64,000 nucleotides of DNA from Macrostomum lignano (taxonomy: Eukaryota): NCBI GenBank assembly GCA_002269645.1, contig NIVC01000869.1, forward strand, positions 359,687-423,686, written 5' to 3'. This document shows, piece after piece, positions 6,124-60,189 of the stretch; within the stretch, counting starts at the first letter, position 1, and every line of letters begins with the position of its first letter. The translations under genes were made by a program, and so were the position numbers. The notes beneath the pieces were generated by a model. The model was not told the origin of the DNA. It was given only the letters and a program-made list of their open reading frames with translations, and did not search any database.

Positions 6124-6140
6124 TGACCACTGGCCAATGA

Positions 6141-27523: not shown

Positions 27524-28300
27524 ATGGCGTCTGCTTTTGGGATCGACTACATGACCTCTGACAGTGAAGCAAGCCTCGACTCCTACTTAACAACAGACGA
27601 GGAGCCTGGCGAGGAGGTTGGTATCGAAGAAGCACTGGATGACAATCCTCCAACGATAGAAGGGTCTGACGGCGAGGAAGGACATGAGTTTGCAGATGGC
27701 GATGCTGCTGAAGTTGAGAATGTTCGGCGACTTGTCGAGCCTGGGTCCGATGAAGGGACAGAATGTTTTGAATTTACCGGAACTGCTGGCCTAAATCCGA
27801 ACTTTTTTAACTCCTGAGGATTTTGAGAAGGATAAATAATTACTTTTACAAAATTTTCTTTCTGAAGAGCTTTTCCAATGCCTCGCTGAATGGACAAACG
27901 CCAAGATGGCCACCATGCTGATGGAACTGGATCCTGATACGGGACTGCACCGCAAGCGAGATGAAGAAGCTAGTCGGCATGCACCTGTACATGGGCCTGA
28001 ACAAAAAGTCCGAGCTACATGACTACTGGAGCACAGACGATTTTCACTGCATACCTTACTTTCAGAAGCCCGAGGCGTTAGCTCGCGATAGATTCAAACA
28101 GCTGCTGACATTTCTGCGCTTCTACGACAGCAGGGAAGAAGCAAGCGCCGACCCACTACACAAGATTCGTCCATTCATGAATCTGCTCCAAGCTTATTGC
28201 AAGAACAACTACCAGCCTGAATTTGAAGTGAGCATTGATGAGTCATTGATACTTTTTAAGGGCCGACTTTGTTTTAAACAGTACATTCCTATCAGTAAGT
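27524..28300 (+). pseudogene. piggyBac-like transposase, second 5' fragment
   Basis: EMKKLVGMHLYMG..K.SELHDYWST; RDRFKQLLTFLRF; DPLHKIRP; VSIDESLILFKGR..FKQYIP; breaks off about 60 bp before Maverick-1. Confidence 0.88.
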
Positions 28301-28360
28301 TGTAAGTATTGTGTTGGGATAGCTAATTTTAAATATATGGGCATTCTGTATAAAGAGATT

Positions 28361-28903
28361 AGTAGAAGGCATGAGGGGGCTTCTGGGACAAAATTTTTCA
28401 CGTCCTCCATAATTCCATTAAATCCATCTATATTATCCCCGACAGAATCAGAAAAAAAGGGGGGTCGCACTCGCTCACAAAACGTCCTCCATAATCCCAT
28501 TAAATCCATCCATATTATCCCTGACAGAATCAGAGCATAACAGGTGTCCTACTTGTTCCGAAAACTTCAAACATAATCCCATTATAATCCACCAACATCC
28601 ACCCATAGCATCTTCGAAACAATCAGAAAATAATCTGCATTCTTCTCCCCATGGGGCCCACATTCAATTCGCAACGTGCTACCAGATCCCTAAGACTTTA
28701 AATCATCAGCGCAGGGTCCTTACCCTTTGAAAAAAAATTAGCTCGTAATTTCTCAATAAAAATGTTTCCAGTTGTCTCTCCAGGTTCCTATTATACTCAG
28801 CCTCATCCATTGTACAAATCCAAGTACCAATGCAAACTAGAATGCAGCGAATACATGAGAAAATATTGGCCCGACGTTGATATCAATGTCCCTAATATTA
28901 ATC
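28361..28903 (+). repeat. Left TIR of Maverick-1
   Basis: Near-identical reverse complement of 43819-44351; contains an internal duplicated unit (ACGTCCTCCATAAT..AAATCCAT..GACAGAATCAGA). Confidence 0.95.
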
Positions 28904-28998
28904 AAGCACTTAAATCTCACTGGTTTGAAAAACACGGAGTAGTCATTAACAATTTTGACAGCTATTATAACTTTGCTGAAGTTATAAGGCAGTTGTAG
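28762..28998 (+). CDS. Small 78-aa ORF straddling the left TIR boundary
   Basis: ATG after an A-run as in other genes of the element; a paralog at the right end conserves the protein beyond the TIR. Confidence 0.6.
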   Translation: MFPVVSPGSYYTQPHPLYKSKYQCKLECSEYMRKYWPDVDINVPNINQALKSHWFEKHGVVINNFDSYYNFAEVIRQL

Positions 28999-29334
28999 TA
29001 GCCAACTACACGGTTGTACCCTGTAGAGTGCAGACGCAAGATCTAAAAATACTGACAAAATCATGTGCAGCATATAGCGGCTCGTATTAGTTACATTTGT
29101 AAGCGATAGCTTACTGATGGTAAAGCTATTTGAACATGGCGCGAATTCCTCACATGGTGGACTAGAAAATGTCGCCATGTGCAAGGCAAGGACTTGGTGC
29201 AAGGGCGTATAAATAGCAGTTCCACTCAGCTGGCTAGAGGTGGAGCCGACCTCGCGTGGCTATGACTGACTGACGAGGGCAAAAAAGCCCAAAACCGGTC
29301 TCAGTCTGCCCCGCATGGTTCGATTCCCACTGAT

Positions 29335-29495
29335 AACATGATTTTCACGAACGTTCGTAAAAATCATGTGCAGCATAAAGCGGCTCTCAGTGGTTACATG
29401 ATTTTCACGAACGTTCGTAAAAATCATGTGCAGCATAAAGCGGCTCTCAGTGGTTACATGATTTTCACGAACGTTCGTAAAAATCATGTGCATAA
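29335..29495. repeat. 60-bp tandem repeat containing a 32-nt imperfect palindrome, about 2.6 copies
   Basis: CATGATTTTCACGAACGTTCGTAAAAATCATG repeated three times at 60-bp spacing. Confidence 0.9.
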
Positions 29496-29496
29496 C

Positions 29497-29732
29497 AAGA
29501 ATTCGCACGAATTCAACTGTGCAAAATAGCATTTTTCTGAGAAAGACTAGTGCGCAGTTGGATTCGCGCCATTTCCTGTCTTAACAGGAATTCGCACGAA
29601 TTCAACTGTACAAAATAGCATTTTTCTGAGAAAGACTAGTGCGCAGTTGGATTCGCGCTATTTCCTGTCTTAACAGGAATTCGCACGAATTCAACTGTGC
29701 AAAAAAAAGCTTTTTTTCTGAGAAAGACTAAT
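29497..29732. repeat. About 89-bp tandem repeat, about 2.5 copies
   Basis: GAATTCGCACGAATTCAACTGT...CTGAGAAAGACTA units. Confidence 0.88.
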
Positions 29733-29973
29733 GACAGACTTGTGTTTGTTATGTGCGAATACTTGCGAAGTTAACCAACTTTTGACATCGGGCATCTTTT
29801 TGTGTCCGATTTCTTTTGTGTTTTCAATCCTTTCACTAAATACTGGTTAGAAAAAAAATAATGCTTGGTCAGTCCAAAAAGCGTGAGGTTGCCTACTAAT
29901 AAGTAATATGACTAGAAAAAATATACTAAAAATTCGAAATAGAACTGAAATAAAATATTTAGTTATTTTAACA

Positions 29974-30837
29974 TCACATTCTCTCAATGATCAACGTCAG
30001 TACAAACTCTTCACCGTTGAAATCAACACCCACCCCATCTTCAGTCTCAAACTGTAGCACAATCTCGTGAATCTCCTTATTACTCAATACAACTCTTTTC
30101 ACTGGATTTGGTTTCTCTACCACCATCTGTCCTCCAGCTACAGAGTTGGAGATATTGTACAAAATATTCGTTCGCTTTCCCTTAAATACCCAATCAAGAC
30201 TGAGATTAGTTCTGATTAGAATATTCAAACCCTTTACAATGTCTGCTATATTGGGTGCTAAGAACAAACCGCGTACACTTTCCCGGGCCATGCTAACGGT
30301 CCCCAATGCTTGAGTGGCGGTCCGCGCCGCGGATTCTGCCTTATAAACTTTCTTCTCGAATCCCAGTTCCCTATACCAAGTGTCATCTTTAAACTCAACC
30401 TCCGCATCTTTGTGAACTTGCATGACCACTCTCATTACAGTGAGATCATAGGTTAGTTTGACAGGGAACAGTTTCTTCTCTGGCTTACTCGCATCAGGTG
30501 TCTCAAAATGGCCTCTCTTAGTAAAGACATTTTCTAGAAAGTTATTGTAGGTATCCACACTTTGCGTGCTCACATGGAATACCACAGGGTCTGCTGCTGC
30601 ACCTTTCCATTTGTAATAAAACTTATTATTTGCTGCCATCACATTGGGAACGTTTGACCAACCAGTGAAGTCGTTAAGATAGACATGGTAATTAGCGCCT
30701 GGATCCAGGCGAATCGCCTGCTCTAATTTTTCAACAAACATCCCGTTTGAGTCATTAATTCGCCCAGTTATTGTAATAGGAATGCTCTCCTTAGAGTGTG
30801 AAACAATGTTGTTTAGTCTTTCAGCAATCGCTTCCAT
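29974..30837 (-). CDS. Minor capsid protein (penton-like)
   Basis: IRLDP..NYHVYL.DF.GWSN.PN; NNKFYY; ILIRTNL....KGKRTNILY; EIHEI.LQF..EDG..VDFNGEE..LTL.I; adjacent to the MCP gene. Confidence 0.8.
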   Translation of the reverse strand: MEAIAERLNNIVSHSKESIPITITGRINDSNGMFVEKLEQAIRLDPGANYHVYLNDFTGWSNVPNVMAANNKFYYKWKGAAADPVVFHVSTQSVDTYNNFLENVFTKRGHFETPDASKPEKKLFPVKLTYDLTVMRVVMQVHKDAEVEFKDDTWYRELGFEKKVYKAESAARTATQALGTVSMARESVRGLFLAPNIADIVKGLNILIRTNLSLDWVFKGKRTNILYNISNSVAGGQMVVEKPNPVKRVVLSNKEIHEIVLQFETEDGVGVDFNGEEFVLTLIIERM

Positions 30838-30860
30838 TTTTTTTTCACATAAAAAAATAT

Positions 30861-32146
30861 TTAAACTTTACTCGATGAATTGTTGATCATGTTAAGCTTC
30901 ACCTTCCTCTCAAATGCATAGATAATGTACAAGTCCACGGGTGTTGCGGCAGTCCTTTCAATGTTAGTCACGATATTCACAGGGCTGTTATCAGTAGGCA
31001 TTTGTCTGGCAGACACATCAGCTCCAAACATTGGATATAGAGTTCCATATTGAAGAGCAGTGATAGCAATTCCATTGTTCTCTTTCACAGCCAAGTCGAC
31101 CAACTCGCTGTAAAATTTGCTAATCTTGTTCTGACTGAAATCTCCATTTTGTGGCAGTGCAGGGTAAAGATTATCACTGATTTCATGCTGAATGGACCGC
31201 ACGTCTCCATGCATGTAGCGTATAATGCTATTTGGGTTTCTCATATTAATAATGATATACCTTGGATTGCTGCATGATCCCTCTTTGATGCAGATGTTTG
31301 TTCTAGTTTCGTTTCGCTCATCTCGACACATGTAGGCCGTGTATGCAACATCAATGTCCTTCTCTATTGCCTTAAGATAGTCTGCTTTTAGTGCAGTCTT
31401 TGGCTCAATGACTTCCAAATACAGCTCGATTCCGGTTAGCTTCACCTCCATCCTTGTGTGGTCCGCCCCAGTCCACAACACTCTACTGCGATCATCTCTA
31501 GTCAGTCTAAATGTGTAGCTAAAGTTACTAGTCAGTCGATTAAATGTATTACAGAATCCACTCATGAATCTCAGTGGTACAAATACATCAACAGACCGAT
31601 ACTGCGGGTTCTTAGCAGCATCATCAGCACCTTGCAATGCATAGTTGTATCTCTTCTTCCTATTTTTATAACCACTGTCATTGATATCTCCTTCTTTTTC
31701 ATCTGCAATAAAACCCGCACCACTTCCCAACTGAATAAAATCAGGATTCTCGATCAAACAATGAGCGTCATAGACAATTCCAAAGTTGGCGATTCGCTCC
31801 AACTCTGTGCTCCCATTCGATACACTAAACTCCTTGAACATGTACGCCCAAAAGTTACTGATCAGAGCCACATCCGCATCATGCTTGTCAACGTTAGCAC
31901 GAGCCGCATCCGCACCACCTTTTGTCTTGAATTGAAATGTCATATGGAAGCCGCTCTTAAGACTGTGCACACTAACCAGAGACGAACATCCATTGTATGT
32001 AAATGTCAGTGTTTGACCTGGACCCAAATTAGTTTCATTCTGTTCTCGTGACTCGGAACTCTAACTTGTGTCGCTTTGATTGTGCTATCATCACTCAAAA
32101 TAGGCTTGTTAATTTTGTAGAAAACTGGTGTCAGTGGGTCGTTCAT
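30861..32146 (-). CDS. Major capsid protein (double jelly-roll), one frameshift near 32045
   Basis: Start MNDPLTPVFYKINKPILSDDSTIKA at 32146 joins by frameshift to NLGPGQTLTFTY; about 425 aa; motifs VPLRFMSGFC, PRYIII, LYPMFGADVS; context next to penton. Call rests on motif memory and synteny. Confidence 0.75.
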
Positions 32147-32176
32147 TTTTTAACTAAAAATAAAATAAAATAAGAA

Positions 32177-32776
32177 ATGAAGCGAAAAAGTACACAGCAG
32201 ATATCTGAATTGGAGAAGCTAGCACAAGCAGAGAAACGAGTTACCGGGCTAATAAATAAGGAGCAACAATCCTACAATGAGTTTGTCCAAGCAGCCACAG
32301 AGTTTCATAAACCCGGGTATGGAGAAGCTAAGAAAAATATTGATCAGGTCAAAGAAACTATCGACGACATACAGGAAACCCAAGTGCAAAAGGTTTTGGG
32401 CAAAATTCCAGAAGCACCACAGATACAGCCGCAACCACAACAACCACAACCACATCAATCACAACTAAAAGTGACAGATAACATTTTTGGACCAGTAGAG
32501 CGTGTCGAACATGATGGGAAATATGTATTTGGAATAAGTATGTGGAGAAGAAACATTTATAATGAACCAGTGGAATATTATATCGACATAAATAAGAAAC
32601 ATATTTCTGTTGTCAAAGGCTCGGAAACTAAGAGCATTCCTTTCACAGAAACCTTACTGACTTTTATGACCAAGAACCAAGAGAGAATCTCGGACAAACA
32701 GCTAAAGAACTATAGAGATCTAGTGACTTTTGCTCTTGCTAGAGATATAGCAATACTAAAGGCCCAGAAGTCCTGA
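32177..32776 (+). CDS. Maverick-1 hypothetical protein (199 aa)
   Basis: Clean ORF after an AT-rich leader; no recognised domain. Confidence 0.55.
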   Translation: MKRKSTQQISELEKLAQAEKRVTGLINKEQQSYNEFVQAATEFHKPGYGEAKKNIDQVKETIDDIQETQVQKVLGKIPEAPQIQPQPQQPQPHQSQLKVTDNIFGPVERVEHDGKYVFGISMWRRNIYNEPVEYYIDINKKHISVVKGSETKSIPFTETLLTFMTKNQERISDKQLKNYRDLVTFALARDIAILKAQKS

Positions 32777-32847
32777 GACTTACGTATGATAACGGTGTCA
32801 ACCTGACTAGATTCAAAAAGTACAATCACTTTAAACAATGGTTCGAT

Positions 32848-33228
32848 TTGCCAGATCAGGCGGAAGTCATAAAATATCTAGAACAACAACAACAACAGCA
32901 ACAACAACCACAACCACAGCAGCAGCAACATTTCACAGAAGTACTCAGGCAACTGGAAAATGCAGATCCGACTCAAGTAGCTGAATATAAGAAACAAAAC
33001 CCAACAGATTGGCAACACTTAGAACAACACTCTCCAGATCGAATGAACAGAATCAAGCAAAGAGTTTTCACACCTCAACAAAGACAGGCACCACATGACA
33101 GTTCCATCTCTGAAAGTGAGCAGTCTTTTGCATCACCTCCCCAGCAGCCACAAGCCCAACCAACTCCACAACCTCAAGACCAACCGCCCTCAACTGGAAA
33201 AGGCATGCTGAATTCTACAAGCGGTTAG
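32848..33228 (+). CDS. Maverick-1 Q-rich hypothetical protein (possibly part of a longer frameshifted ORF)
   Basis: Open frame with poly-Q; boundaries uncertain. Confidence 0.45.
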   Translation: MPDQAEVIKYLEQQQQQQQQPQPQQQQHFTEVLRQLENADPTQVAEYKKQNPTDWQHLEQHSPDRMNRIKQRVFTPQQRQAPHDSSISESEQSFASPPQQPQAQPTPQPQDQPPSTGKGMLNSTSG

Positions 33229-33387
33229 CTGTTCTTCTAGGAGCGGCAAAGACCGGAATGAAAGACGAGAATAGAAAAGAATTTGTCAACATCCTGGACA
33301 AAATGCTTGAGAGAAAATATATCGATAAAAGAGCAAGAGAACTTTTGCTTTCACGGTTTAACAAAAAATAAATTTCTATTTAAAAAG

Positions 33388-33777
33388 ATGCCAATTATTT
33401 TCGAAAAAGACATTGACAAATACTATGACAAAGAGGAACTTAATCTCATTAAACGCGGATCTGGACTTTTCCCTGCAGGCCACTATCCAAGAAAAGAACG
33501 CTCTGGGAATGGCCTTGCTGATTTGATCGCTCAGGGGGCTAAGATTTTTAAGGTCATTGGAGAGAACAAAGAGAACATCAAGAACGTTGCCGAAGCGGCT
33601 GGCAGTGTAGCCACAGCAGCCAAAAAGATAAAGGATACTGTAACACCTAAACAAGAGATTCAACCTCCACCGGCCCCGCTGGCCCCGCTGGCCCCAAATC
33701 CAGACAGTGTGGACCCTGCAGTCTATGAGAAGATGAGAGCTAGCATTAAAAAAGGAAGTGGTTTCAAATTTGACTAA
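33388..33777 (+). CDS. Putative virion core/membrane-active protein with GxG-type cleavage motifs
   Basis: RGSGL, SGNGL followed by the amphipathic-looking ADLIAQGAKIFKVIG, and C-terminal KGSGF. Confidence 0.55.
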   Translation: MPIIFEKDIDKYYDKEELNLIKRGSGLFPAGHYPRKERSGNGLADLIAQGAKIFKVIGENKENIKNVAEAAGSVATAAKKIKDTVTPKQEIQPPPAPLAPLAPNPDSVDPAVYEKMRASIKKGSGFKFD

Positions 33778-33820
33778 AGGTACTTTCCGAGGGTACAAGA
33801 AATGTAAAGGTACAAGACTA

Positions 33821-33990
33821 GTCCCAAAATGACACAATTAAGTACCAAAATGACACATTTAAGTCCCAAAATGACACATCTAAGTCCCAAAATGACACAT
33901 CTAAGTCCCAAAATGACACATCTAAGTCCCAAAATGACACATCTAAGTCCCAAAATGACACATCTAAGTCCCGAAATGACACATCTACAT
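33821..33990. repeat. 21-bp tandem repeat (GTCCCAAAATGACACATCTAA), about 8 copies
   Basis: Direct inspection; lies upstream of the ATPase start. Confidence 0.95.
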
Positions 33991-34026
33991 TATTTATTAT
34001 TTAAATTTTTTTTCATCATAGAAAAA

Positions 34027-34826
34027 ATGGACTTTTCAAACGACTTCAATCCTCACTGGACACGTAATCAGATTAAGTTTTCTCATCATGAGTCAATCCC
34101 GAGTCACTTCAGATGCATTTTTGTTGGTTCATCAGGTTCAGGTAAAACATTCAGAGTCTTTAACATGCTTCTTAGACCTGGCTTTATCGACTATGACACT
34201 CTGCACATCTACTCTCCCACACTGTATCAAGATGAGTATAGAATGCTGATTGCAGGGCTTCAAAACAAGCTGAACAAAGAGGACATTATTGCATGTTTTA
34301 ATAACCAACAAATCCTTCCCAGCAACCCAGAAATTGTAGCTGCCGAATATGCAAAGCACCTCAAAGACAATGAAAAATGGCAGAACATTAAAGTGTTCAC
34401 CTATGGAGATCCACAGGCTGATCCAAAGACCAAACTTCTACCCCAACCAGATGAGCTAGAAAAGGGGAGAAAGCATTTGATCGTCTTTGATGATTGTATG
34501 ACAGGCCCACAGAAGCAGATAGAAAACTATTTTACAAGAGGCGACATAACAATTGTAATGTAATTTACATTGCACAGAATTGGTTCGAGCTCCCGAACAA
34601 AACAATTCGTGGGAACTGCAATCTGATTCTCCTGTTTCCAACCATTCCACAGGACAGGTTAAAAAGATTTTACAATGAGGTCATTGCGCCTGCCTATTTC
34701 ATAAATCCAACAAAAAACTCAAGCAGAAAGATTTCACAAGAGGAATTCGTTAATCTTTGCTATGACAAGTGGAATCAGCCTTACCAGTTTGTGATTATCA
34801 GCAAAGAAAAAAGAACTGTAATTTAA
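34027..34826 (+). CDS. DNA packaging ATPase (A32/FtsK-HerA type), one frameshift near 34545
   Basis: Walker A VGSSGSGKT, Walker B LIVFDDC, then G|RHNN..VIYIAQNWF..KTIR.N in the next frame. Confidence 0.92.
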
Positions 34827-34842
34827 AATTTGCTATTAAAAG

Positions 34843-35450
34843 ATGTCGATAAACTTTGCAGGTGAATCCATTTCTGGCAACAGCGCTCTTACATCAGCTC
34901 AGATATCCATCCTTGACAGGCGATATATCAACAGCGACGAAAAGATCCCAGAGATCAAACTGAATAAAAACAGACTGAAAACCCTAGAGCGCTCCATGCA
35001 CCAGTTGCAAATAAACATGGAAGATCTCAGGCTTAAAGTAGCTAGGCAGAAGTTTGAAAGTGAAAGCTTTATGTGCCGTTGTTAAACGCAACTAATGAAC
35101 TAAGGTCAGAAATAACTTCGATAGTCTCGCTAATCAACGGCTTGAGATCATCAGTTAATCTTCTGGGAAATTCCACTGATAGACGGATGCGTATTCTCGA
35201 AGGAGGAGTTTTCACAAACACAGCTAAAGTAAATAATTTAGAAGAGTTCATGAACCAGTCAACAGCGTTGCATGATAGAATTAAAGAAAACGTCGCAACC
35301 AACACAGTTAAAGTCAATAATTTAGAAGAGTTCATGACTCAGTCAACATCGTTGCATGATCGAATCAAAGAAAGACTTGAAGCATTAAAGAGAAAGGATG
35401 TATCACACAGTAGCTATCTAAACGGAATGTATAGCTTTGGGGTAAAATAA
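34843..35450 (+). CDS. Coiled-coil hypothetical protein (two overlapping ORFs, probably one frameshifted gene)
   Basis: 34843-35085 and 35073-35450 overlap; internal repeat TAKVNNLEEFMNQST / TVKVNNLEEFMTQST. Confidence 0.45.
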
Positions 35451-35751
35451 TAAGGAGGCTTGATCGTCTGGAGAGAACACTCAATCTTCGTGATATTGCT
35501 ATTGATGAAGCAGAATCTGCTGCTCGTCCGGTCATGTCTACAGATCGAGTAGAAGGAGCTCTGGACCCCGCCGGAGTAATCCGGCACGCTCTCAAACGTC
35601 AGCCGCCCAGCCGCTGCCTGCTGGACTCGCGATCCTCCGGCGTCACGAGAGCCGCCTAGACAACCGGCGGTGCAGATGGAATTATCAAAAAGAAAACAGA
35701 TCTTTCAACCGGATAGTTTTTTATTTTTTTTTATTTTTTCTAGAGAAAAAA

Positions 35752-36489
35752 ATGGCCCAACAAAATTCTCTATACGATCAGTCTCAATACGTTGAACCTA
35801 AAATACCGACAGCACCAAACTCAATGGCACCGAATTCGAACACACAAAACCTGGCACCGAATCTGAATGCACCCCAATATGAGCAACAAAAACTCTACCC
35901 TGTCATTACTTGTAACTCTCAGCAGTTTCGACTGGTGGAGATTCAAAAAATGCGAGATGATCTTGAAAAAAATATTTTCCATAACACAAAGAAAATTAAG
36001 CGCTATGACAACCACTGTAAATTTTTCGACTACAGCAATATGATTCTAGGATCTGTGTCTGTTCTATCTGGATCTGCTGCGGCTGTCTCAACGTTGCCAG
36101 CCATCACAGTCCCAATCGCAATTCCACTTGGTTCAGTAGGTGCTGCATGTGGACTTATTTCAGCAATTACTGGAGCAGTAGCGCGAAACAGGCGAAAAAA
36201 ACTAAAGCAGCTACAGGAGAAGCAAGTAAAAGAGAAAGGGGTGCACACTTCAATCATAGGGTACATTTCAAGGGCAATCGATGATAAGTTCATTTCAGAG
36301 GATGAGTTCAAAACCATTCAGGATCTTTATGAACAATCAATTCGAATGAACTTGAACATGGTCGGTACTGATGACATGAGTCAGCTGAGAAATGAACTCG
36401 AGAAAGTTCTTCAACATTATGCGGAAAGAAATTCGGCAAAAAATTCGGCAAGAAATTCGGTAAGAAGGACGACGAGAAATGTACAATGA
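35752..36489 (+). CDS. Conserved Maverick membrane protein with hydrophobic hairpin (resembles the adintovirus family termed gasderminX)
   Basis: FRL.EI...; KKIKRY; two hydrophobic Gly/Ala/Ser-rich helices; basic RRKKLK; ISRAIDD..ISEDEF. Family name is from memory of the pattern, not a search. Confidence 0.6.
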   Translation: MAQQNSLYDQSQYVEPKIPTAPNSMAPNSNTQNLAPNLNAPQYEQQKLYPVITCNSQQFRLVEIQKMRDDLEKNIFHNTKKIKRYDNHCKFFDYSNMILGSVSVLSGSAAAVSTLPAITVPIAIPLGSVGAACGLISAITGAVARNRRKKLKQLQEKQVKEKGVHTSIIGYISRAIDDKFISEDEFKTIQDLYEQSIRMNLNMVGTDDMSQLRNELEKVLQHYAERNSAKNSARNSVRRTTRNVQ

Positions 36490-36493
36490 ACTT

Positions 36494-36895
36494 TTATGAA
36501 ACACAGGTACGAATAATTTCCTTGTAGGTCTTTCGTGTTTTGGTCATTGCATACAAAACAGTCATGCACAGCTCACCGCAAATATCACTGCTAAGACCTT
36601 GGAGAATAAAGTCTGAGCGATAAATTTTTTTATTCTTTTTTCCCTTCATATAATTTCTTAGCTCTTCTGGTACTGCCGTCCCATAGCTATCAAAGTAATA
36701 ACACTTGTGCTTGCGATCGGGATCAATCACCCAGCAAACCCAATGAGATCCTGGCTTGTCGGTGGTGTCAAAGTTCATGATGCCGCATTCCTTTCTTAGA
36801 GGAAAATCAGGCAGATTGTCCCTCATAAATATTCCTCTAAAGTTTGGGATTTCCAGTTCGTTAGCCAAATCTTCAAGAAAGTTATTTGTTGTCAT
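36494..36895 (-). CDS. Adenain-like cysteine protease
   Basis: FRGIFMRD; GIMN.D...GSHWVC; YYFDSYG; LQ...SDICGELC (His, Asp, Gln, Cys). Confidence 0.92.
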   Translation of the reverse strand: MTTNNFLEDLANELEIPNFRGIFMRDNLPDFPLRKECGIMNFDTTDKPGSHWVCWVIDPDRKHKCYYFDSYGTAVPEELRNYMKGKKNKKIYRSDFILQGLSSDICGELCMTVLYAMTKTRKTYKEIIRTCVS

Positions 36896-36948
36896 TTTTT
36901 ATGAGGTTTATTAAACTTTCTCTTAAACCTAAACCCAACCTCCACCTC

Positions 36949-38526
36949 CTAAACCCAACCTCCTAAACCTAATCTCCAGTGCCCGAACGGTAGACTGTTG
37001 ATATTGTCATCAAAAATGAATCTCTTGTTATCTGCACCTGACAGCCCAATCTTCTTTTGCTGAATTGTGTGAATAATATGGTTTTTGGATTGTAGCTTTG
37101 AGAACTCATGAGATGTCTTTTTGTTGCAATTTAAGGCGTCTCTGTATTCAGCTTCATTAATTTCCTTCCTAACCACACGTTTCGGAATTCCCTTTGATTT
37201 TTTAATTGGGTCTGACGAATCACATTTTACAAAATAGGACTTTGCTCTCAACCCAATGAATTCAGTGATTATGTCACCAGCAATCTCGTCCTTCATTTTC
37301 CCAATCACTTTCTTGTTAGTGGCGTCAAAAATTTGATCGCCATTCTGTGTCCTACAAGATTCATCATACTCAGACAAGTCAAACAAATCTTTTTGCTGCA
37401 GCATGTCCTGATAAATGTCTTCTGTTTGAATGTCCATAATAAAACTGTCTGTGTCAGTGTACAAGAGTTTCATTTTATCCTTGTACTGCTGCTTCATGCC
37501 ATAGAAGAATTGGTACATCAAACGTTTTGATTCGTCGAGAACAGTGACACCTGTATAGATCGGCTTGCGCAGCGTCACCTTGGTTTTGTAAAATATGATC
37601 ACACCTAAGTAGCTATTAAAGATATGGAGTTCTTTGAATGTTGGCTTTGACATATTTGCCTGAATAACATCAGGCTCTGATGAGGTAACAAGTTTCAGGT
37701 TTGTTCTTTTGCGCTCATTTTCAAGAGTCTTGCCATAGACAGAGTTGTTGGCCAACTTAAAGAGGTTCTTGTCAAAGTCGTTGGTTGCTTTGGTCCTAAA
37801 CTGGGTATTCTTATCAATGTAGGGTTTCATCCAAGCTTCCTCTGTAAATGTAAGAGCCCTGTGAACTTTGGTGACCCTACAACCAAGTGAGATAAAATAC
37901 TGAAGCAGTTTGTAATGGATTTTGTAACGTGTCTTGTTGTTTAGATTTTGTGTTAGTTTCTCTGTATGTTCTTTTTCTGTTCTTGACAGGTGCCAAGTTC
38001 CATTATTATCATTGGGAGTTTCGATTATTTTCGGGCACTTGATATTCTCCGGGAAGGGTGGAAAGTCAGAGAAATAGTCGTGAAGCTCTGGTGGAATGTA
38101 AACATCAACTTCATAAATGGCAGCCAATGAAAAGTCCCACTTTAGTTCTGATGAGGGTAGCCATCGAAAATCTCTAACTGGAAGATCTTGACTCATCGCC
38201 CACCCGTAGAGATTATTAGCGTCCAAGTAAGTAATGTAGTTTGAGGGCTGCTCCTTATTGTAAGATCCAATGTAGGGATTGTTTGCTTTTGCATACCTGT
38301 TAACGCAAATTGAGATTCCCCCTCGCTTTGACGATTCGACAAAATTGTACATGTCAATGTCTGTAAGAAGTTCAATGTACCAATCTGGATCTTGATCCCA
38401 TTTCATTTTAAGCAAAGATTCCCAGCTAGTGGCAGGCAGAGACACATAATGTGCTGGATCGAGGCCATATGCTGTGTACCAGGTGTATCTGAAGGTTTCA
38501 AACACATCGGCCAGCAGAAACACATT
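36949..38526 (-). pseudogene. pPolB, C-terminal polymerase part (detached from the N-terminus)
   Basis: LLADVFE; YLDANNLYGWAMSQ.LP; FKLANNSVYGKT; LLYTDTDS; NKKVIGKMKDE; FIGLRAKSY. Confidence 0.95.
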
Positions 38527-38535
38527 AGCAAGAAA

Positions 38536-38599
38536 TCAGAGAGGGCAAGTTAATCGTCATCTGGAGTTGCCATAGCGACGGGTAAACGATAGACATCAT
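38536..38599 (-). ncRNA. Box C/D snoRNA copy 1
   Basis: C box ATGATGT, C' ATGACGA, D box CTGA; guides ACTTGCCCTC (anti-18S GAGGGCAAGU) and CGTTTACCCG (anti-28S CGGGUAAACG). Confidence 0.82.
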
Positions 38600-38785
38600 T
38601 GATAGTGGATAAAATCGAGCAGCTGAGCTCGCACTGGGACTTACAGAAAAATCCGTGGGTTATGAGCGACCGCCTCTGCCCACGACTGGCTCTGAAAGAG
38701 TGCATTGGAAGCTGATAATCAAATACAGATGCACTTTAAACAAACGTATAATGAAGACTTGACCAGTTATTAACGGACAACAAAA

Positions 38786-38849
38786 TCAGAGAGGGCAAGT
38801 TGGTCGTCACTTGGGGTTGCCATAGCGACGGGTAAACGGTAGGCATCAT
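38786..38849 (-). ncRNA. Box C/D snoRNA copy 2
   Basis: C box ATGATGC, C' GTGACGA, D CTGA; guides ACTTGCCCTC and CCGTTTACCCG (11-nt match to 28S CGGGUAAACGG). Confidence 0.85.
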
Positions 38850-39040
38850 AAAAATCGCAGAGTTCAGGAAAATTTGTCATGAAAAGGCATCGCTGAAACT
38901 TACAGCTATAAAGTGTTCAACTCCTGCAGCACTGCTACAGATCTACAAGACCGAGCCTGAAAGGTTAATGTAAGCGGACAGACCGATAAGACAAGTAGTA
39001 TATAAGAGTATTTTATTTGTATTTTAATAAAATATTTTAG

Positions 39041-39104
39041 TCAGAGAGGGCAAGTTAGTCGTCACTTGGGGTTGCCATAGCGACGGGTAAACGATAGGCA
39101 TCAT
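39041..39104 (-). ncRNA. Box C/D snoRNA copy 3
   Basis: ATGATGC-CTAT-CGTTTACCCG-T-CGCT-ATGGCAACCCCAA-GTGACGA-CTA-ACTTGCCCTCT-CTGA. Confidence 0.85.
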
Positions 39105-39290
39105 GTACTTTAAAAGACTCGCAGGTGCAACAGAGCAATCGAACTTGACTCACCGATATTCGCTATCCGTATGTGCAGGCCAGCTGCGAACTCCATGGGT
39201 GGCCCTGTAAATGCAATCAGTTTGATACGTCAGTAATGAATCAAATTCCAGGTCTTTGTGCCACTAGTTCTGTACTTTTGACAGACAAAA

Positions 39291-39355
39291 TCAGAGAGGG
39301 CAAGTAAGTCGTCACACGGGTAACCATAGCGACTAGTAAAAACAATGAACATCAT
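39291..39355 (-). ncRNA. Box C/D snoRNA copy 4 (18S guide intact, 28S guide diverged)
   Basis: ATGATGT...GTGACGA..ACTTGCCCTCT-CTGA; the 5' guide reads TTGTTTTTACTAG instead of CGTTTACCCG. Confidence 0.8.
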
Positions 39356-39516
39356 TTATTTATAGACTAAACACAAAATAGAAATGAAAACTTATGGACA
39401 CCAACTCACCTATACAGATCCGCAGTTTAAGAGTCAGAGAGCGAGAGATGGCGACTGGCATTTTACTCGGCTGTCAGCTGAAACACGCATTTTGAGTCAG
39501 CTGATTGTGAAGCGGA

Positions 39517-39713
39517 GATCTTACTTCATTAGCTAACACTGGGGATGGGATCTCACTTAATTAGTTAACACTGGGGATGGGATCTCACTTCATTAGCTAA
39601 CACTGGGGATGGGATCTCACTTAATTAGTTAACACTGGGGATGGGATCTCACTTAATTAGCTAACACTGGGGATGGGATCTCACTTAATTAGTTAACACT
39701 GGGGATGGGATCT
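39517..39713. repeat. 32-bp tandem repeat (TAACACTGGGGATGGGATCTCACTT(A/C)ATTAG(T/C)), 6 copies
   Basis: Direct inspection; abuts the pPolB CHIC codons at 39714. Confidence 0.95.
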
Positions 39714-41356
39714 GCAGATGTGGCAATGAGTTGCTGATAAGAAATTGCTTTCATCCTCCTCAGTCATCATTATTGGAACAGGTTGAAGGGTGCTAATTAC
39801 TTTTTGCAACTCTAACATTCTGGCAATAAACTGCTCCACACACTGCTCTCCAAAGAAATAATTATACTCAACAAGTCCTTTTGTATTAATAAAGGCATAT
39901 GCTACTGAATTGGGGACATGTTTTTGTGTTTGAGTTTGTTTTTGTGTTTCCGGCATGATTGAGCATTCGAAATCAGCATATACAACAAATGGGAGCTTCT
40001 CCATCTTGTGATAGTTCTTAAACCGAAGATACTTCTCTTCAGCTGAAGGAAGAGAGCAGTTTTTTGGGGTGATCCTCGCATGATAATTCATGCTCTACTA
40101 GTTTTTTTAAACGCTCAGGTCCACTGTAATGCTTGAGGCACAAGCGGCAGATGGCAACAGCCTCGTGATGATTATTCAACTGCTTGTGAATGAGTCTTGA
40201 AAGATCTTTAATCCAAACATAGTGAGCCTCCTCTAGTAAATTACCAATCACTAGAAGATCAACTTCAGTCCGCCTTTTCCCCTCGGGATCTAAAACGTCT
40301 TTGCTACATCTGACCGGTTGAACTTTCTCAGTTTTTTCACTCCATTCAAAGACTGTGATTCTAATTTTGTTATTAAACACTTCTTCTAGCTTTGGGATCT
40401 GAGAGATCGCCAAGCCTCCTTTGTCAAACCTGATTCCCTTCTTTTCGCATTCAATGAGATAGTAGTTGAAATAATTTTGATAATTTGAGGTTCTTTCGGG
40501 GTGGTGAGGGACACTATCATGAAAAAGTGCAGAAAGAACTACCCACAGAGCACAGCAATTGTCTTTATTTTTAACATTTATGCAAGCTTTTTTGCCGGCT
40601 AGCTTATGCGGGAGCTCTATATAAGAGGAGGCTTTAAGTGGGTCATATTTCATGACCATGACAGTCGCTCTTTGGATCCCTCCCACGACCCATCCGGAAC
40701 CTCTGGATGTAAACGCTTCAATTTTCTTATTGACATCTTGAAGGAAAGGATCCAGTGTGTCTGTTGGGGTGAATGGCTTTGCCTTTGTTGTCATGTAATA
40801 CTCGAGATGCTCTGTGGGTTTTGCAGGCATATAAAACGCAATCTTGAATGATATCTGTAGTTTAAAGGTCTTGCGTGTTTTGAGTGTGTGATCAACAACT
40901 GATTGGATGCTGTCTGTATAGTCGTAGATGTTTGCGGTGGTATCCTTAATTGGGATTGTGTACTCTATGTAATGTTCTGTAAACTTCCTCTGTGCAAAAT
41001 TAATCTTTTCAATGGCAAGCTCCGACTCTTTTAAATGGATTAATTGCTTTAATTTCTCTTGTTCCTGCTTATTTTGTGGGTACTTTGCTTTTTCACCAGT
41101 GAGAGTTTCGTATTTGTTAATTAAGTTGCGACTCCTCTCTTGGTGTTCCTTTGCAGGATTTTTTTATAGGCGCATACTGGTTGGATTCTAATTGATTGAT
41201 GATTTCCAACTGTTTTTCATAGCTTCCCAGGTGACCAGGGTCGGTGTTAAACTTTTGCTTGCACGCTTTTCTTAGTAAATTACTTTTGTCTTGAAATGAG
41301 ACGCCTTTTGAAAAATATTTGTTGACTAAATCTTTTGCTGGATTAGCTTTTGGCAT
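39714..41356 (-). pseudogene. pPolB, N-terminal part (terminal-protein-like region up to the CHIC motif), frameshifts near 41110 and 40060
   Basis: GSGW; PL.ASSYI.LP..L..KKACINVKNKD; HYVWIKDLSRL; CRLCL; PFVVYADFEC; FL.ATHCHIC, then abrupt break. Confidence 0.9.
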
Positions 41357-41478
41357 TTTTTCTATAAAATAAAAAAATTTTTGAGGGTGACCACCCTGAT
41401 AGAAAAGTTGAACTGTTTCTACATCCTATAAGTAGCGTTAGGTTTATGAAGCTGGATAAAGTGGGGTTTTAAACCTCA

Positions 41479-41925
41479 TCACATCCGCATTATTGTAAAC
41501 CCAGCATTGTGCAGTGTCATGATTGCTTTGACAATGTCAGACTTGCTTACAGAATTTTCATGCTCACAATCATCATGATCGGGGCAGCCCTCTCCTGCCT
41601 TAATTGTTATACCTTTGTCTCTTGCAATCTTTTGCAATTCTAGCTGGTGGGCTCTATCATTCCCAGCTTTAACAGCAGTTGCTACACCTCCAGCTACACC
41701 ACCTGCGGCACTTACAGCGCCTGCAATGATCGGAATAAGAGCTGCTAATGGTAGGATTCCTCCTGACTTTTCATCTGTGATGCTGTGTCTTTGTTCATTA
41801 CACTGAACTATTTGCTGCGTGGGATCGATTTTTACTTTGATACCTTTAATTGATATAAGACCTGGTTTCTTTGATTCAATGATTTTATTGAGTTTATTGA
41901 CGGTTCTGGTTTCAATCTTTGTCAT
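41479..41925 (-). CDS. Protein X-like virion protein (GG-[FI]LP hydrophobic motif)
   Basis: KSGGILPLAALIPIIAGAVSAAGGVAGGVATAV; a homologous motif occurs in Maverick-2 (QHGGFLPFLAPI). Confidence 0.65.
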   Translation of the reverse strand: MTKIETRTVNKLNKIIESKKPGLISIKGIKVKIDPTQQIVQCNEQRHSITDEKSGGILPLAALIPIIAGAVSAAGGVAGGVATAVKAGNDRAHQLELQKIARDKGITIKAGEGCPDHDDCEHENSVSKSDIVKAIMTLHNAGFTIMRM

Positions 41926-41941
41926 TTTTTATTTTAATATT

Positions 41942-42937
41942 TTAATTAATTTCTGTGTCAGCCGGTATCACTAGGAGTTCAGCTCTAGTGAATGACCGTG
42001 TGGGGGATTTAGGGTTAAAGGCCTGAGATAAAAAGTAATAGTCACCGGAGTCGGAGGTAAAATGTCTGTCTATTTTATGTACATCAAGGCTGAAGTATGG
42101 ATCTGTAGCTCTTCTTTTGGTGTCCTTCTCTAGCTCTCCAGGTAGATATAAAAAGCGTAGAAACTCAGAGTTTGTCAGTATGTATGGTGATTCAACTCCT
42201 GGAAGCTTAGGGTAGTTTGAGGTGTCTGTTCTATGAGATGACTTAAGTTCGACAGTGTGTTGTTTAATTGCATGGGATGGTTTCAATCCAGTCATGCGCG
42301 TGACTTCATTGTTCAGTTGTTCTATAACAGTGGGGAGCCGGTCTGTCCATTTTGAATAGTACTGACCACTTTTTAGTTTCAGCTCCTCTGCTGTCTGCTT
42401 AGTGAATAGCCTCTTGGCTAGAGTTAGATTGAATCTTTCCACAAAAGCCTGGTCTCTGTGGAGCTCAGTTCTGCCATAGCGAATCTCTGTATTTTTCTTT
42501 TCCATAAGGGATTTGACTGCCCCATTGAATTCCTTACCCTGATCGACCATGAACATTTCTGGATAGGTTAGAGGAGAGGTTTCATAGATCTCTTGCAGTG
42601 CGCTGGCAACAACCTCTGACTTCTTCGTCTTGAGTGGGCGAGCTTCCTTATATCTGGAGGCAACGTCTGTAATTGTAAGAGCATACTTGTAGCCTGAGTC
42701 GTTGGGGAGAAACAAAAGATCTGCTTGGTGCGCTTCATTAGGTTTATAGATGCTAAAGTGAGGTCTTGTAAATTTTACTGGTGGGAAATAGACTTGAAAG
42801 ACAGCCTGCTTAGAGAGCCACTTTTCTACTTTAGCTTTTGGTTCCTTACTTAGTTCTGCGAGTTTGGTGACTGCATTTTTTCCTACAAAGAATCCTTTGT
42901 CACTGTAGTAGAGTTTTTTAAGTTTCTGATCTGTCAT
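41942..42937 (-). CDS. Retroviral-like (DDE) integrase of Maverick-1
   Basis: HQADLLFLP; YKYALT..DVASRY; DQGKEF; QAFVERFN.TL; intact from MTDQKL at 42937. Confidence 0.93.
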   Translation of the reverse strand: MTDQKLKKLYYSDKGFFVGKNAVTKLAELSKEPKAKVEKWLSKQAVFQVYFPPVKFTRPHFSIYKPNEAHQADLLFLPNDSGYKYALTITDVASRYKEARPLKTKKSEVVASALQEIYETSPLTYPEMFMVDQGKEFNGAVKSLMEKKNTEIRYGRTELHRDQAFVERFNLTLAKRLFTKQTAEELKLKSGQYYSKWTDRLPTVIEQLNNEVTRMTGLKPSHAIKQHTVELKSSHRTDTSNYPKLPGVESPYILTNSEFLRFLYLPGELEKDTKRRATDPYFSLDVHKIDRHFTSDSGDYYFLSQAFNPKSPTRSFTRAELLVIPADTEIN

Positions 42938-42967
42938 TTTTTTAAAAAGAAAATTTAAAATAAAATA

Positions 42968-43480
42968 ATGCAACGCTCTGTTGGTAAGTTAGATTCACAT
43001 GGACTGATAGAAAAGCTTCCTCATCCAAACAAAGGCTGGACGATTCCCGGCTATAAATATTGCGGGCCTTTGAATCCACTTGAAATACAGTTAGATACAA
43101 ACAATAATCCAAATCCTGGGCATGAGCCTGTGAACGAGCTAGACTCTGTCTGCATGTGGCACGACGTTAAATATAGAGATTTTCCTGAGGAGAAGAATCG
43201 CTGGGACAAAGAAATGCTTAGGAGACTCGACAATATGGGGATTTCAAGCGGATTTCGTGAGTCGATTGCTCGGAAATTAGTCAAGGCGGTTATTTTTGGT
43301 AAGTCTAAGTTGGGGTTGGGGGTGTGCGTCGGGGGTGGGTGTACGGGGAGAGAGGGTGGGTGTGCGGAGTGCTCGGGAGCAGGGTTTATTTTGTGCGCTC
43401 CTAACAATGAATTGGGAAGGCTCTTGAAAGATATGGGGGTAGAGAGAGCGCGCGTGGGGGGAGAGAGATTTTCACTTTAA
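42968..43480 (+). CDS. Parvovirus VP1u-like phospholipase A2 (PLA2X-like)
   Basis: IPGYKYCGPLN (Ca-binding loop), PVNELD..C..HD..Y (catalytic HD), D.EML. Confidence 0.88.
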   Translation: MQRSVGKLDSHGLIEKLPHPNKGWTIPGYKYCGPLNPLEIQLDTNNNPNPGHEPVNELDSVCMWHDVKYRDFPEEKNRWDKEMLRRLDNMGISSGFRESIARKLVKAVIFGKSKLGLGVCVGGGCTGREGGCAECSGAGFILCAPNNELGRLLKDMGVERARVGGERFSL

Positions 43481-43564
43481 CTGAGCCCAGCCGAGGAAGA
43501 ATTCCGTCTCGAGGGAAGGCCAGAATGCAAACGATTTCGGCCTCGCGCAAGGCCAGAATGCAAA

Positions 43565-43715
43565 CGATTTTGGCCTTTTGGCCTTTTTGGCCTTTTGGCC
43601 TTTTGGCCTTTTTGGCCTTTTGGCCTTTTGGCCTTTTTGGCCTTTTGGCCTTTTGGCCTGTTTGGCCTTTTGGCCTTTTGGCCTTTTGGCCTTTTGGCCT
43701 TTTGGTTTTTCGGTT
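43565..43715. repeat. 9-bp-type repeat (TTTTGGCCT)n, preceded by a duplicated GGCCAGAATGCAAACGATTT
   Basis: Direct inspection. Confidence 0.9.
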
Positions 43716-43959
43716 TTTTAACGCAACTGCCTAATGATTTCTGCAAAGTTATAGTAGCTGTCGTAATCTTTTACGTAGGTTACTCCATACTTATGAAACC
43801 AGTGTCTTTGGAGAGCTAGATTAATATTAGGGACATTGATATCAACGTCGGGCCAATATTTTCTCATGTATTCGCTGCATTATAGTTTGCATTGGTACTT
43901 GGATTTGTACAATGGATGAGGCTGAGTATAATAAGAACCTGGAGAGACAACTGGAAACA
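43716..43959 (-). pseudogene. Right-end paralog of the TIR-straddling ORF, with a GAA>TAA nonsense change
   Basis: MFPVVSPGSYYTQPHPLYKSKYQCKL*CSEYMRKYWPDVDINVPNINLALQRHWFHKYGVTYVKDYDSYYNFAEIIRQLR. Confidence 0.7.
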
Positions 43960-44351
43960 TTTTTATTAAGAATTTATTTTTTTCAAAGGGTAAGGACCCT
44001 GCGCTGATGATTTAAAGTCTTAGGGATCTGGTAGCATGTTGCAAATTGAATGTGGGCCCCATGGGGAGAAGAATGCAGATTATTTTCTGATTGTTTCGAA
44101 GATGCTATGGGTGGATGTTGGTGGATTATAATGGGATTATGTTTGAAGTTTTCGGAACAAGTAGGACACCTGTTATGCTCTGATTCTGTCAGGGATAATA
44201 TGGATGGATTTAATGGGATTATGGAGGACGTTTTGTGAGCGAGTGCGACCCCCCTTTTTTCTGATTCTGTCGGGGATAATATAGATGGATTTAATGGAAT
44301 TATGGAGGACGTGAAAAATTTTGTCTCAGAAGCCCCATCATGCCTTCTACT
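43819..44351 (-). repeat. Right TIR of Maverick-1
   Basis: Reverse complement of 28361-28903; followed by the TSD GAGATT. Confidence 0.95.
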
Positions 44352-44424
44352 GAGATTTTAGCACACGTTTATCTAAGAAGGCTTTTGCGCATGTTATCTA
44401 AAAGCCCCCTCTTTCCTTCTACTG

Positions 44425-48273: not shown

Positions 48274-49425
48274 TCAAAATTTCTTAGCAACTTGAGCCAC
48301 AAAGTCGTTTCTGACCCACAGTCCGTCCCATTCGTTGAATGTAGCGATGTTCTGCACTTGGAAGCTACCCATGGACAGCAGAGAGAAGTTCCTCGAGGTC
48401 ATGAAGTGAGTCACAAACTCGTAATGTTTGGACGATTGCGGTCGCTGACCGAGCTTCCGCCAGAACTCCATCTGCAGCGCCATGATGTTGAGCTCTCTAA
48501 ACAGCTTCTCACCAGTCTTCATGAACAGGTGCTCACCGGACTCGATATCCATCTTGACGACCACATTCTTGGTGCCGATGTGCGCTCGAAGCTCGTCCGC
48601 TTTGACAGTGGTCACGGGAATCGTGTCCTCGATTGACTTCTTGACCTGCCGTTTCCAGTCAGCCAATCCGCCCGAGCCGCCTCCAACATTGCAATTCATG
48701 CCGTCAGCGTCCCAGCTGATCCGCTTGACCGCCACGTCGTCACTGATGAAGCCCCAGAAGAGCCTCAGCTTGTCGTCAAGCAAGTTCAGCCGCTTCGCTG
48801 ACATCTGCAGCCTGACCAGTGTGCGAATGTTTGCATCGATGGCCACCACGGGATACCCGAGCTCTCTGGCCTGCAGGCTGTAGATGCCAAGGTTGCTGCC
48901 GATATCGAGGAACGTCGCAGAGTTTTTCGGAAGCTTCTGTAACAGGTTGAGCATCGTCCGAATCAACAAAGTGTCCCATGCGCCGTTCGTTAGCATTTTC
49001 CTGGAAATCAAATCCTCCTTGCCGAAGGTGAATATCGGAATTCGTCCGCCGCCCATCGCTCGGGTCACATTGGCCAGAGGAGACCCTTGTCTGACAATGG
49101 TGTACAACTGCTGCGGTAAGTTCCTGTTCAGCTCGCACAGGGGAAACTTGCCCCTGACTAACTGGTAGGCCAGCGTCTTCTGACACAGCCGGTGCTGCAG
49201 GCTGGGGTTCGTGAAGTCGACATTGCGGAGCTCGTTGTACGGAGGACAGTTTTTAATCATCTCGACATCGCTCAGTGTTGGTAGCGACTCTTCAGCGTTC
49301 AGGCCTTTGTTTCGAACGAAATTTAATTTTGAAGCGCTCGAATTGTTGGGCCTCATTAGAAATGTCACCGCAAATAAGAAAACTACAGCGCAGGCCAGCA
49401 GTACCAAATTATGCTTTGTTCTCAT
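48274..49425 (-). CDS. FkbM-like methyltransferase, type II membrane anchor, single exon, 383 aa
   Basis: TM LVLLACAVVFLFAVTFL; FLDIGSNLGIYSL; VVAIDANIRT; VVVKMDIESGE; LQMEF; shares CNVGG with the 8920 paralog. Confidence 0.87.
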   Translation of the reverse strand: MRTKHNLVLLACAVVFLFAVTFLMRPNNSSASKLNFVRNKGLNAEESLPTLSDVEMIKNCPPYNELRNVDFTNPSLQHRLCQKTLAYQLVRGKFPLCELNRNLPQQLYTIVRQGSPLANVTRAMGGGRIPIFTFGKEDLISRKMLTNGAWDTLLIRTMLNLLQKLPKNSATFLDIGSNLGIYSLQARELGYPVVAIDANIRTLVRLQMSAKRLNLLDDKLRLFWGFISDDVAVKRISWDADGMNCNVGGGSGGLADWKRQVKKSIEDTIPVTTVKADELRAHIGTKNVVVKMDIESGEHLFMKTGEKLFRELNIMALQMEFWRKLGQRPQSSKHYEFVTHFMTSRNFSLLSMGSFQVQNIATFNEWDGLWVRNDFVAQVAKKF

Positions 49426-58665: not shown

Positions 58666-60119
58666 TTACTTATAAACGCGCCGAAAAAGCCGTCGAGTTC
58701 GCTCATCCAACTCGCCTTCTTTCAACCACTGATTCCTAAAGGCCTCAACTCCTTGCCATTTCACTAAATACCGCCACTGACCGTCTGAGTCTTTTTCGTA
58801 AGCGTCTACACGCTCGATGACTGACGGCTCCGTACTTTCTTTTGCTACACGCTGTAGTTCTCCCTCATTGAAGTAACCCTCTAGTGTGCTATTTCCGTCT
58901 TCCGGATTCTCTAGTTTATACGACGCTGCTCGGCGAGGATTCGTAGCACGGATCCGAAACACGGTGTTGCTCCACACTGTCGAATAGCCCTTCTCGAAGG
59001 CACCCCGCTGTCGTGCGATTCTTACCCAGTCCCTACCTTTAGTGTTGATAGAGGCTGCTGCGAGGCTTCATGCTCTATAATCTCAGACCCGATGATTCCT
59101 TGTAGACGCGGATCCACCGCCGTGTTGTGAGGACTCTGACCAAACAGCGCCCGGTGAGGGCTTGAGTTCAAATTTCGTTCCATTTGGGGTAGAATGTCAT
59201 ACCAGCGTTCTAGGTTTCGAGCCCGAAAATAACGGCTGAGCCGCTCTTTCAGAGTACGGATTAACCTTTCAGCGATCGCAGCCTTGTAATTGCTTTGGCT
59301 AACAAAAAAGCGTACACCCGCCCGTTTTAGTACAGCTTGAGTTTCACGCCCTAGGAACTCCTTTCCCGCGTCACCCTGAAGATAGAGAGGTCGGAAGCCT
59401 TCACGAAACAGATTTTCAAGTGCGGCGCCCACCTCTTTAGCAGTTTTTGTTCGTAGAGGTCGCAGACGTACTTCGCGAGTGAAACAATCGATCAAAACGA
59501 GGATGTAGCGGTATCCCTTGTTTTCTGACTTGTATTGAGGGAGATCAGCCAGGTCGATTTGGAATTGAAAACCAGGGATATGTGGTACACCAATTCTGCG
59601 GGTTTTGAATATTCGTTTAGTTTTGCGAAACAGGTTATATTCTTTGGTATCCCGGGCCCATTCGTCAACGATTTCTGCCGCTCGTTTTGATGCTAGTGAC
59701 GGAAACTGGGTTTTAACATGTCTTAATAGCTGTTGCTTACTTCCCGCAAAAGCAGTAGGGCGGTCCAAATCGTAAAATTGTCTGTCTAAGAAGTTCTTGA
59801 CGTCTAGCGAGTTGTTCTTTCTAGTCCGTTCTTTTGCGTTTTCGGACAGCTGCCGGCTCTGGTGTTTCGCTTTCGCATCTGAGGTCTCTTTTTCGCTGCC
59901 ATCGGTTTTTGTATCGGTGATTCCTCCCGCACCGCTGCTCTGTGGCAAGTTATCAGTTGATGCAGAGCGCGTCACCGTCATGCAGCACCTAATGTTCTGT
60001 ATGGTGATATCGCCCGCGTCGGGAGTGTCCTCGTTATGGTGGAGTGCCCCGCCTAAGCAGCCTTGCAAAAGTCTCACAACCAAATGAAAAACAAAGCGTA
60101 AAATTTCGCGTAGTTCCAT
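58666..60119 (-). pseudogene. Retroviral-like integrase with C-terminal chromodomain-like region (Maverick-2), frameshift near 59025
   Basis: FQIDLADL; YRYILVLIDCF; LQGDAGKEF; KAAIAERLIRTLK; then W...FRI, GYFNE.ELQ and YLVKWQG....NQW. Confidence 0.9.
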
Positions 60120-60189
60120 TATCAGAGTGTGTTGATACTCAATCCGCGATGCGTCCGACCAGTTAGCTTATAGCTGCTACAATATTTAA

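Follow-up and report, generated by a model that had tools for sequence, protein, structure and literature searches.

Host-derived RNA genes have been reported within Polinton-type elements. In a collection of Polinton-like viruses and virophages, 22 snoRNA and 22 snRNA matches were counted, and three captures of host rRNA in Polinton-like elements were judged probably non-functional (PMC12220804). Cargo genes described from nematode Mavericks include wosp proteases and krma kinases (PMC10680173). snoRNA genes also travel by way of RNA, as retrocopies (PMC1687206) and, in platypus, as snoRNA-derived SINEs (PMC3072357). Host RNA genes in Polinton-like elements are thus already in print, and the locus described here is no new system. 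In a literature search that left most subscription papers uncovered, none of the titles listed dealt with snoRNA clusters carried by animal Mavericks.

The window analysed here is a 64,000-nucleotide stretch of the Macrostomum lignano genome (contig NIVC01000869.1, positions 359,687 to 423,686). It holds one Maverick/Polinton copy, recognised from its terminal inverted repeats (TIRs), its target site duplication (TSD) and Pfam matches to integrase, protease, double jelly roll and PX. The features of the element are as follows.

28355..28360, + strand: left 6-bp TSD, GAGATT, perfect
28361..44351, no strand assigned: Maverick/Polinton copy, 15,991 bp
28361..28941, + strand: left TIR, about 580 bp
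30864..32149, - strand: major capsid gene, frameshifted near 32040 relative to two siblings (Pfam DJR-like, E 1.5e-5, below cut-off)
33994..34823, + strand: ATPase gene (P-loop), frameshifted near 34506-34542 (comparison with sibling ORFs)
36497..36898, - strand: adenovirus-type protease ORF (Pfam Peptidase_C5, E 1.3e-4)
36952..38525, - strand: 3' part of pol (polymerase core), frame open; the junction interrupts Exo III
39712..41359, - strand: 5' part of pol, frameshifted near 41150-41163 and 40066 (tblastn with sibling ORFs)
41945..42988, - strand: integrase ORF, open (Pfam rve, E 8e-9, above cut-off)
43781..44351, - strand: right TIR
44352..44357, + strand: right 6-bp TSD, GAGATT, perfect

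Like other Mavericks, the element combines long TIRs and a 6-bp TSD with a retroviral-type integrase, a protease, an ATPase and a jelly-roll capsid, and protein X was also detected by Pfam in a scan of 26 frames of the window. The motifs of a protein-primed family B polymerase are present, in a gene that is broken in this copy. A sibling segment matched DNA_pol_B_2 weakly (E 3e-4 and 7e-4, below cut-off), and the window's own pol pieces gave no Pfam match. The two TIRs differ by 20 substitutions and 2 gaps over 571 aligned bases. Compared with the frames of three siblings, themselves partly broken, the copy is frameshifted twice in pol, once each in the major capsid and ATPase genes, and also in two unnamed ORFs. 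The extra pol base near 40063-40066 is missing in contigs from all four sequencing runs compared. A sequence-only reading of the window had held that TIRs, integrase and capsid genes are retained; the TIRs and the integrase are, whereas the major capsid ORF, 432 aa long in siblings, is frameshifted. The intact pol, capsid and ATPase frames of an autonomous element are lacking, and the copy is incapable of replicating by itself.

Several other observations concern this element and its surroundings. A phospholipase A2-like ORF lies at its end (42959-43477, + strand; Pfam PF08398, E 5e-13), and siblings have one too. Identity to two siblings is 76-86% in the capsid region (29974-32914), as against 94-97% in pol, a contrast that points to module exchange between subfamilies. 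One sibling (C975:125228-131117) folds back at 128419 within pol, giving an inverted duplication. The left flank is a repeat with matches of about 90% elsewhere in the assembly, and its part 28200-28310 (+ strand) presumably resembles a piggyBac transposase fragment. Retroelement frames (RNase H and integrase domains) and an FkbM-type methyltransferase-like ORF occupy 3181-4737, 26225-26893, 59025-60167 and 8905-10092 of the window, and short inverted matches join 6140-6302 and 9874-9915 to 48463-49117.

Between the two parts of pol lies the captured DNA, whose features are listed below. X numbers denote public sequencing runs.

38526..39711, - strand: captured host DNA, 1186 bp, replacing about 617 bp of pol (donor alignment and sibling comparison)
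38536..38599, - strand: predicted C/D snoRNA 4, in an intron cut 10 nt past box D and without its own 3' splice site
38645..38691, - strand: exon 4, 47 nt (splice signals in the sequence)
38786..38849, - strand: predicted C/D snoRNA 3, 10-nt 18S guide and 11-nt 28S guide (intron 38903-38692)
38904..38956, - strand: exon 3, 53 nt (joint in X12 and loose end at 38904)
39041..39104, - strand: predicted C/D snoRNA 2, 18S and 28S guides (intron 39153-38957; GT..AG joint in X12)
39154..39204, - strand: exon 2, 51 nt, opening an ORF of 18 codons with its stop in exon 3 (joints in the run contigs)
39291..39355, - strand: predicted C/D snoRNA 1, 18S guide kept and 28S guide degenerate (intron 39409-39205)
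39410..39516, - strand: upstream region with exon 1 of the host gene (a splice donor follows 39410; joint in X12)
39517..39713, - strand: 32-bp minisatellite, 6.2 units, the last six units of the donor (36, 19 and 19 units in the donor contigs)

The polymerase had been read from the letters as normal up to THCHIC and as resuming near 38526, with the 32-bp repeat and a snoRNA gene fragment between, on the strand of pol. Both points hold: the codons end at 39714, resumption is near 38525, and the repeat and the snoRNA gene fragment lie between on that strand. The limits first given were 38527..39713; the bases belonging to the insert only are 38526-39711, flanked by microhomology with the Maverick that is 2 nt long on the 5' side and 1 nt long on the 3' side. 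Neither junction has a TSD or a TIR, as had been noted.

The Maverick family has 402 candidate places in the 764-Mb assembly, of which 38 were scored (93-98% identical). Both anchors are held by 17 of 19 sibling loci, at a spacing of 633-655 bases as against 1206 in the window, and these 17 resume at the same bases as the window's pol; the other two hold a single anchor only. At the site of the replacement, all 35 paired siblings have a segment of 579-635 bp, with a mode of 617 bp (11 copies; about 206 codons). The pairs exclude one copy without a 3' match and two whose 5' match ends earlier. Alignment to intact relatives thus puts the loss at about 617 bp of pol. What was lost is an endonuclease-VII-like insert together with Exo II and the greater part of Exo III: the segment holds a DHxH motif and Exo II, and ends within Exo III, in all 17 siblings compared, and a sibling frame has a weak match to Endonuclease_7. 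The exonuclease had been described as wholly absent from this copy, which overstated the loss: Exo I survives on the upstream side of the insert, at 39980-39966.

A genome-wide search located the donor. Three near-full matches to the insert, 93-96% identical, were found elsewhere (11 of 11 candidates scored), none in a Maverick context. The three contigs (C1680:202700-207600, C3306:24400-36400 and C3171:40500-44800) are colinear across the 20-30 kb compared and look like haplotypes of one locus. The insert aligns to one of them in a single piece (1304-2503 of that donor locus, 94.9%), with introns and upstream minisatellite included. It runs from the last six minisatellite units through the upstream region to four micro-exons with the first four C/D snoRNAs, that is, the contiguous and unspliced 5' end of a host snoRNA host gene. 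These alignments identify the donor and measure the deletion, and they support the proposal of the sequence-only reading that host DNA was captured by replacement.

Over about 990 bp, 27, 44 and 47 substitutions separate the insert from the three donors, and the donors differ from one another by 39, 40 and 3. Its divergence from the assembled donors thus falls within the 39-40 substitutions between donor haplotypes. At 20 sites the insert differs from all three. Contigs of run X1 are identical to the insert over 133-176 nt and, among the matches listed, cover 9 of these 20 insert-specific sites, so a close native allele still segregates. At the native locus a single double-guide C/D snoRNA is repeated in tandem, with 13, 20 and 10 copies per contig among the matches listed. 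Its units are set apart by a 23-bp minisatellite, the copy number of the array is polymorphic, and in all three donor contigs the first snoRNA copy is without the 28S guide.

Since introns and upstream repeat are retained, the insert was copied from DNA. A snoRNA retrocopy was rejected, the insert being contiguous and unspliced, with introns kept and no TSD. The minisatellite is native to the upstream region of the donor and is not a repair product. A Helitron insertion, considered because of the 5' junction A|TC and the 3' end CTAA, was rejected as well: these ends fall within donor sequence, one in a minisatellite unit and the other in an intron, and the 617-bp target loss and the single copy also contradict it.

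Each of the four RNAs in the insert has a box C, a box D and a 10-nt guide to positions 557-566 of the species' own 18S rRNA, and copies 2-4 have a second guide, of 10-11 nt, to its own 28S rRNA. Boxes C and D, an intronic position and an antisense guide placed by the 5-nt rule are thus all present. The box D guide points at G560 of 18S, in the same register as the Rfam SNORD103 guide, and the 5' guide agrees with the Rfam sn2343 consensus guide and pairs over 10-11 nt with 28S. A lone 10-nt rRNA match is weak (400 of 2000 shuffles give one), the D' box is non-canonical and the C'/D' motif is degenerate. The middle of the snoRNA also matches 10 nt elsewhere in 28S, but this match has no D-like box behind it and was set aside. 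Neither the window nor 80 kb of donor loci gave an Rfam match at gathering score. Weaker matches were to SNORD103/85 (E 0.27-1.1) and sn2343 (E 9.5); RF00188 (SNORD103/SNORD85) scored 16.7-18.7 bits, below its gathering score of 45 bits. Box D lies 84-94 nt from the 3' splice site in the three complete introns, and joints in run X12, predicted to be RNA, show removal of the first intron and of 38957-39153, the latter with GT..AG ends. Because of the C/D boxes, the intronic position, the agreement with Rfam guides and the intron removal in X12, the identification of these RNAs as box C/D snoRNAs, predicted to guide modification of both 18S and 28S, is supported. The 18-codon ORF of the spliced exons is as expected of a non-coding host gene, and the pyrimidine tract at 39448-39429 is, we assume, 5'TOP-like.

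By comparison with the SNORD87 guide, the 28S target is presumed to be equivalent to human Gm3744. At the 18S site the insert snoRNA is predicted to work like SNORD103/SNORD85. The human targets are 18S Gm601 for SNORD85/103 and 28S Gm3744 for SNORD87 (PMC11550049, PMC3349704). The insert snoRNAs share guide register or consensus with SNORD103/SNORD85 and SNORD87/sn2343, and they differ from SNORD103/85 and SNORD87 (28S Gm3744/G3723) in that both guides reside in one 64-nt RNA.

A separate observation outside the window concerns the same 28S target. A dispersed element of 298 bp, bounded by 14-bp terminal inverted repeats and flanked by 8-bp target duplications, is common to 6 of 8 sampled loci at 93-99.7% (L084:875-1172, with the same offsets in L085, L086, L088, L089 and L091). 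Its middle is a 65-nt piece of 28S rRNA, 86% identical, that contains the target of the snoRNA 28S guide. Across the assembly, a 27-base pattern taken from this element matches 1531 times, a count to which true rDNA contributes. By its structure the element is probably a MITE, presumably hAT- or P-like, that captured and amplified a piece of rRNA, and it is arguably more interesting than the Maverick capture.

The sequence-only reading had gone further and proposed that the Maverick could be mobilised in trans and spread or amplify snoRNA genes. Junction patterns were scanned over the whole 764-Mb assembly, and each junction 30-mer has 1 match at up to 2 mismatches. The insert is in 0 of the 35 paired siblings. 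The guide 24-mer has 47 matches, 43 in the donor and 4 in the window copy, and all 56 matches of a minisatellite 32-mer are in the donor or the window copy. With single-copy junctions, insert-free siblings and no guide or repeat copy outside donor and window, there is no sign that the captured fragment has spread; mobilisation and amplification of snoRNA genes by this Maverick are not supported in the one assembly. Several copies with the same capture junctions, the mark of a Pack-type element, were not found in that assembly. The snoRNA is already present natively in 10-20 copies per haplotype, to which the window copy adds at most three processable genes. As far as one assembly can show, the locus is probably the dead one-off capture that the sequence-only reading had named as its own alternative.

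We therefore consider it highly improbable, and the least probable of the readings weighed here, that a non-autonomous Maverick serves as a mobile, expressed snoRNA cassette, spreading or multiplying guides for rRNA methylation. With an upstream region, exon 1 and three complete introns, the insert could be transcribed on its own; TIRs and the integrase ORF are intact, and nematode Mavericks do bear cargo genes (PMC10680173). However, the capture is single-copy, and with 43 native copies the added dosage is small. The RNA data also count against it. A spliced X12 contig has non-insert letters at 39411-39413 and 39429, so that its transcript comes from a native allele. At some sites X1, X2 and X7 each show the non-insert letters only, as would be expected of individuals that lack the window copy, and among the joints listed for the four runs none connects pol to the micro-exons. 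A stronger version seems to us very improbable too. It would have the insert as a self-contained transcription unit expressed from the Maverick, with the TIR-intact copy moved in trans to several sites in the population, and perhaps a host promoter reading into the exonuclease-less polymerase core via a cryptic pol acceptor.

The same counts bear on the stage at which the host DNA was gained. It may have been acquired extrachromosomally, by template switching of the element's own polymerase or by repair of a linear intermediate, followed by one integration with help in trans and no amplification. The element has two TIRs and a perfect 6-bp TSD, the abundance of the family (402 candidates) means that helpers may exist, and pieces of host rRNA occur within Polinton-like viruses (PMC12220804). 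Against this, the 764-Mb assembly has no second or parent copy with either junction, the many other lesions fit a long residence, and a chromosomal break is the simpler cause. We regard acquisition before integration as unlikely.

Of 24 public sequencing runs listed, four were compared, all as contigs. Contigs drop rare variants, and the runs need not come from the assembled individual. No contig bridging either junction was found among the 32 of 1418 pieces listed for the four runs. Of the loose ends listed (24 of 102), those at 38525 run into the donor (X2, X7) and those at 39712 into sibling pol (X1, X12). The site is 24 kb from the contig end and in a multi-copy family. An assembly or library chimera, in which a read from the donor locus was wrongly merged with a Maverick copy, would account for these observations. 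A chimera would, however, more often show one junction and match an assembled donor. Here there are two clean junctions with colinear resumption 617 bp on, and the insert allele is unlike all three assembled donors at 20 sites. Given also what the runs and their contigs are, an artefact of this kind is quite unlikely. Of 97 candidates for another allele of the insertion site, 40 were scored, and none is an insert-free allele (all are repeats, at best 90% identical), so capture after integration is no more than probable.

We consider a one-off, DNA-templated break-repair capture in an integrated, decaying Maverick copy the most probable explanation (about 0.7). One or two chromosomal breaks would have occurred inside pol of a single integrated Maverick. 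The ends would then have been joined to DNA copied from the 5' end of a non-coding snoRNA host gene, a transcribed locus not linked to the Maverick, with about 617 bp of pol lost, 1186 bp gained and joining via 1-2 nt of microhomology. The captured DNA would not have been copied onward. Here we infer both the repair pathway and a capture later than integration. Outcomes of error-prone break repair include deletions at short microhomology with templated insertion, and duplications from ectopic donors, and templated insertions of 10-1000 bp are described in rice (PMC7407515). A segment of 1.2 kb from an unlinked locus exceeds the templated insertions described there, and this counts against break repair.

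The capture looks genuine, and the locus is a clean, base-resolved example of the entry of host DNA into a Maverick, in which donor allele, lost segment and microhomologies can be read. Such a capture is the first step of cargo acquisition, usually seen only long afterwards. Were the same junctions found at several sites in a population, or RNA with insert-specific alleles, there would be a DNA route of snoRNA mobility beside the known RNA route.

Like snoRNA retrocopies, the insert places snoRNA genes at a new locus; retrocopies go via RNA, whereas the insert, with introns and upstream repeat, came via DNA (PMC1687206, PMC3072357). Like Pack-MULEs and Helitrons, the window Maverick holds a host gene fragment of 1-2 kb, introns included, between DNA transposon ends and would depend on help in trans, but those elements often form amplified families, and this one is unamplified and of another transposon class (PMC6431247). 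It shares with nematode cargo Mavericks the presence of host sequence within a Maverick. The nematode cargo consists of protein genes spread across species, in contrast to the cargo here, which is non-coding, single-copy and destroys pol (PMC10680173). The likeness to Polinton-like viruses and virophages lies in host-derived RNA genes inside Polinton-type elements bordered by TIRs and TSDs. The captures described there are in protists, whereas the present one is in an animal-type Maverick and brings spliceosomal introns (PMC12220804). It differs from them also in that its donor locus, deletion and microhomology are resolved.
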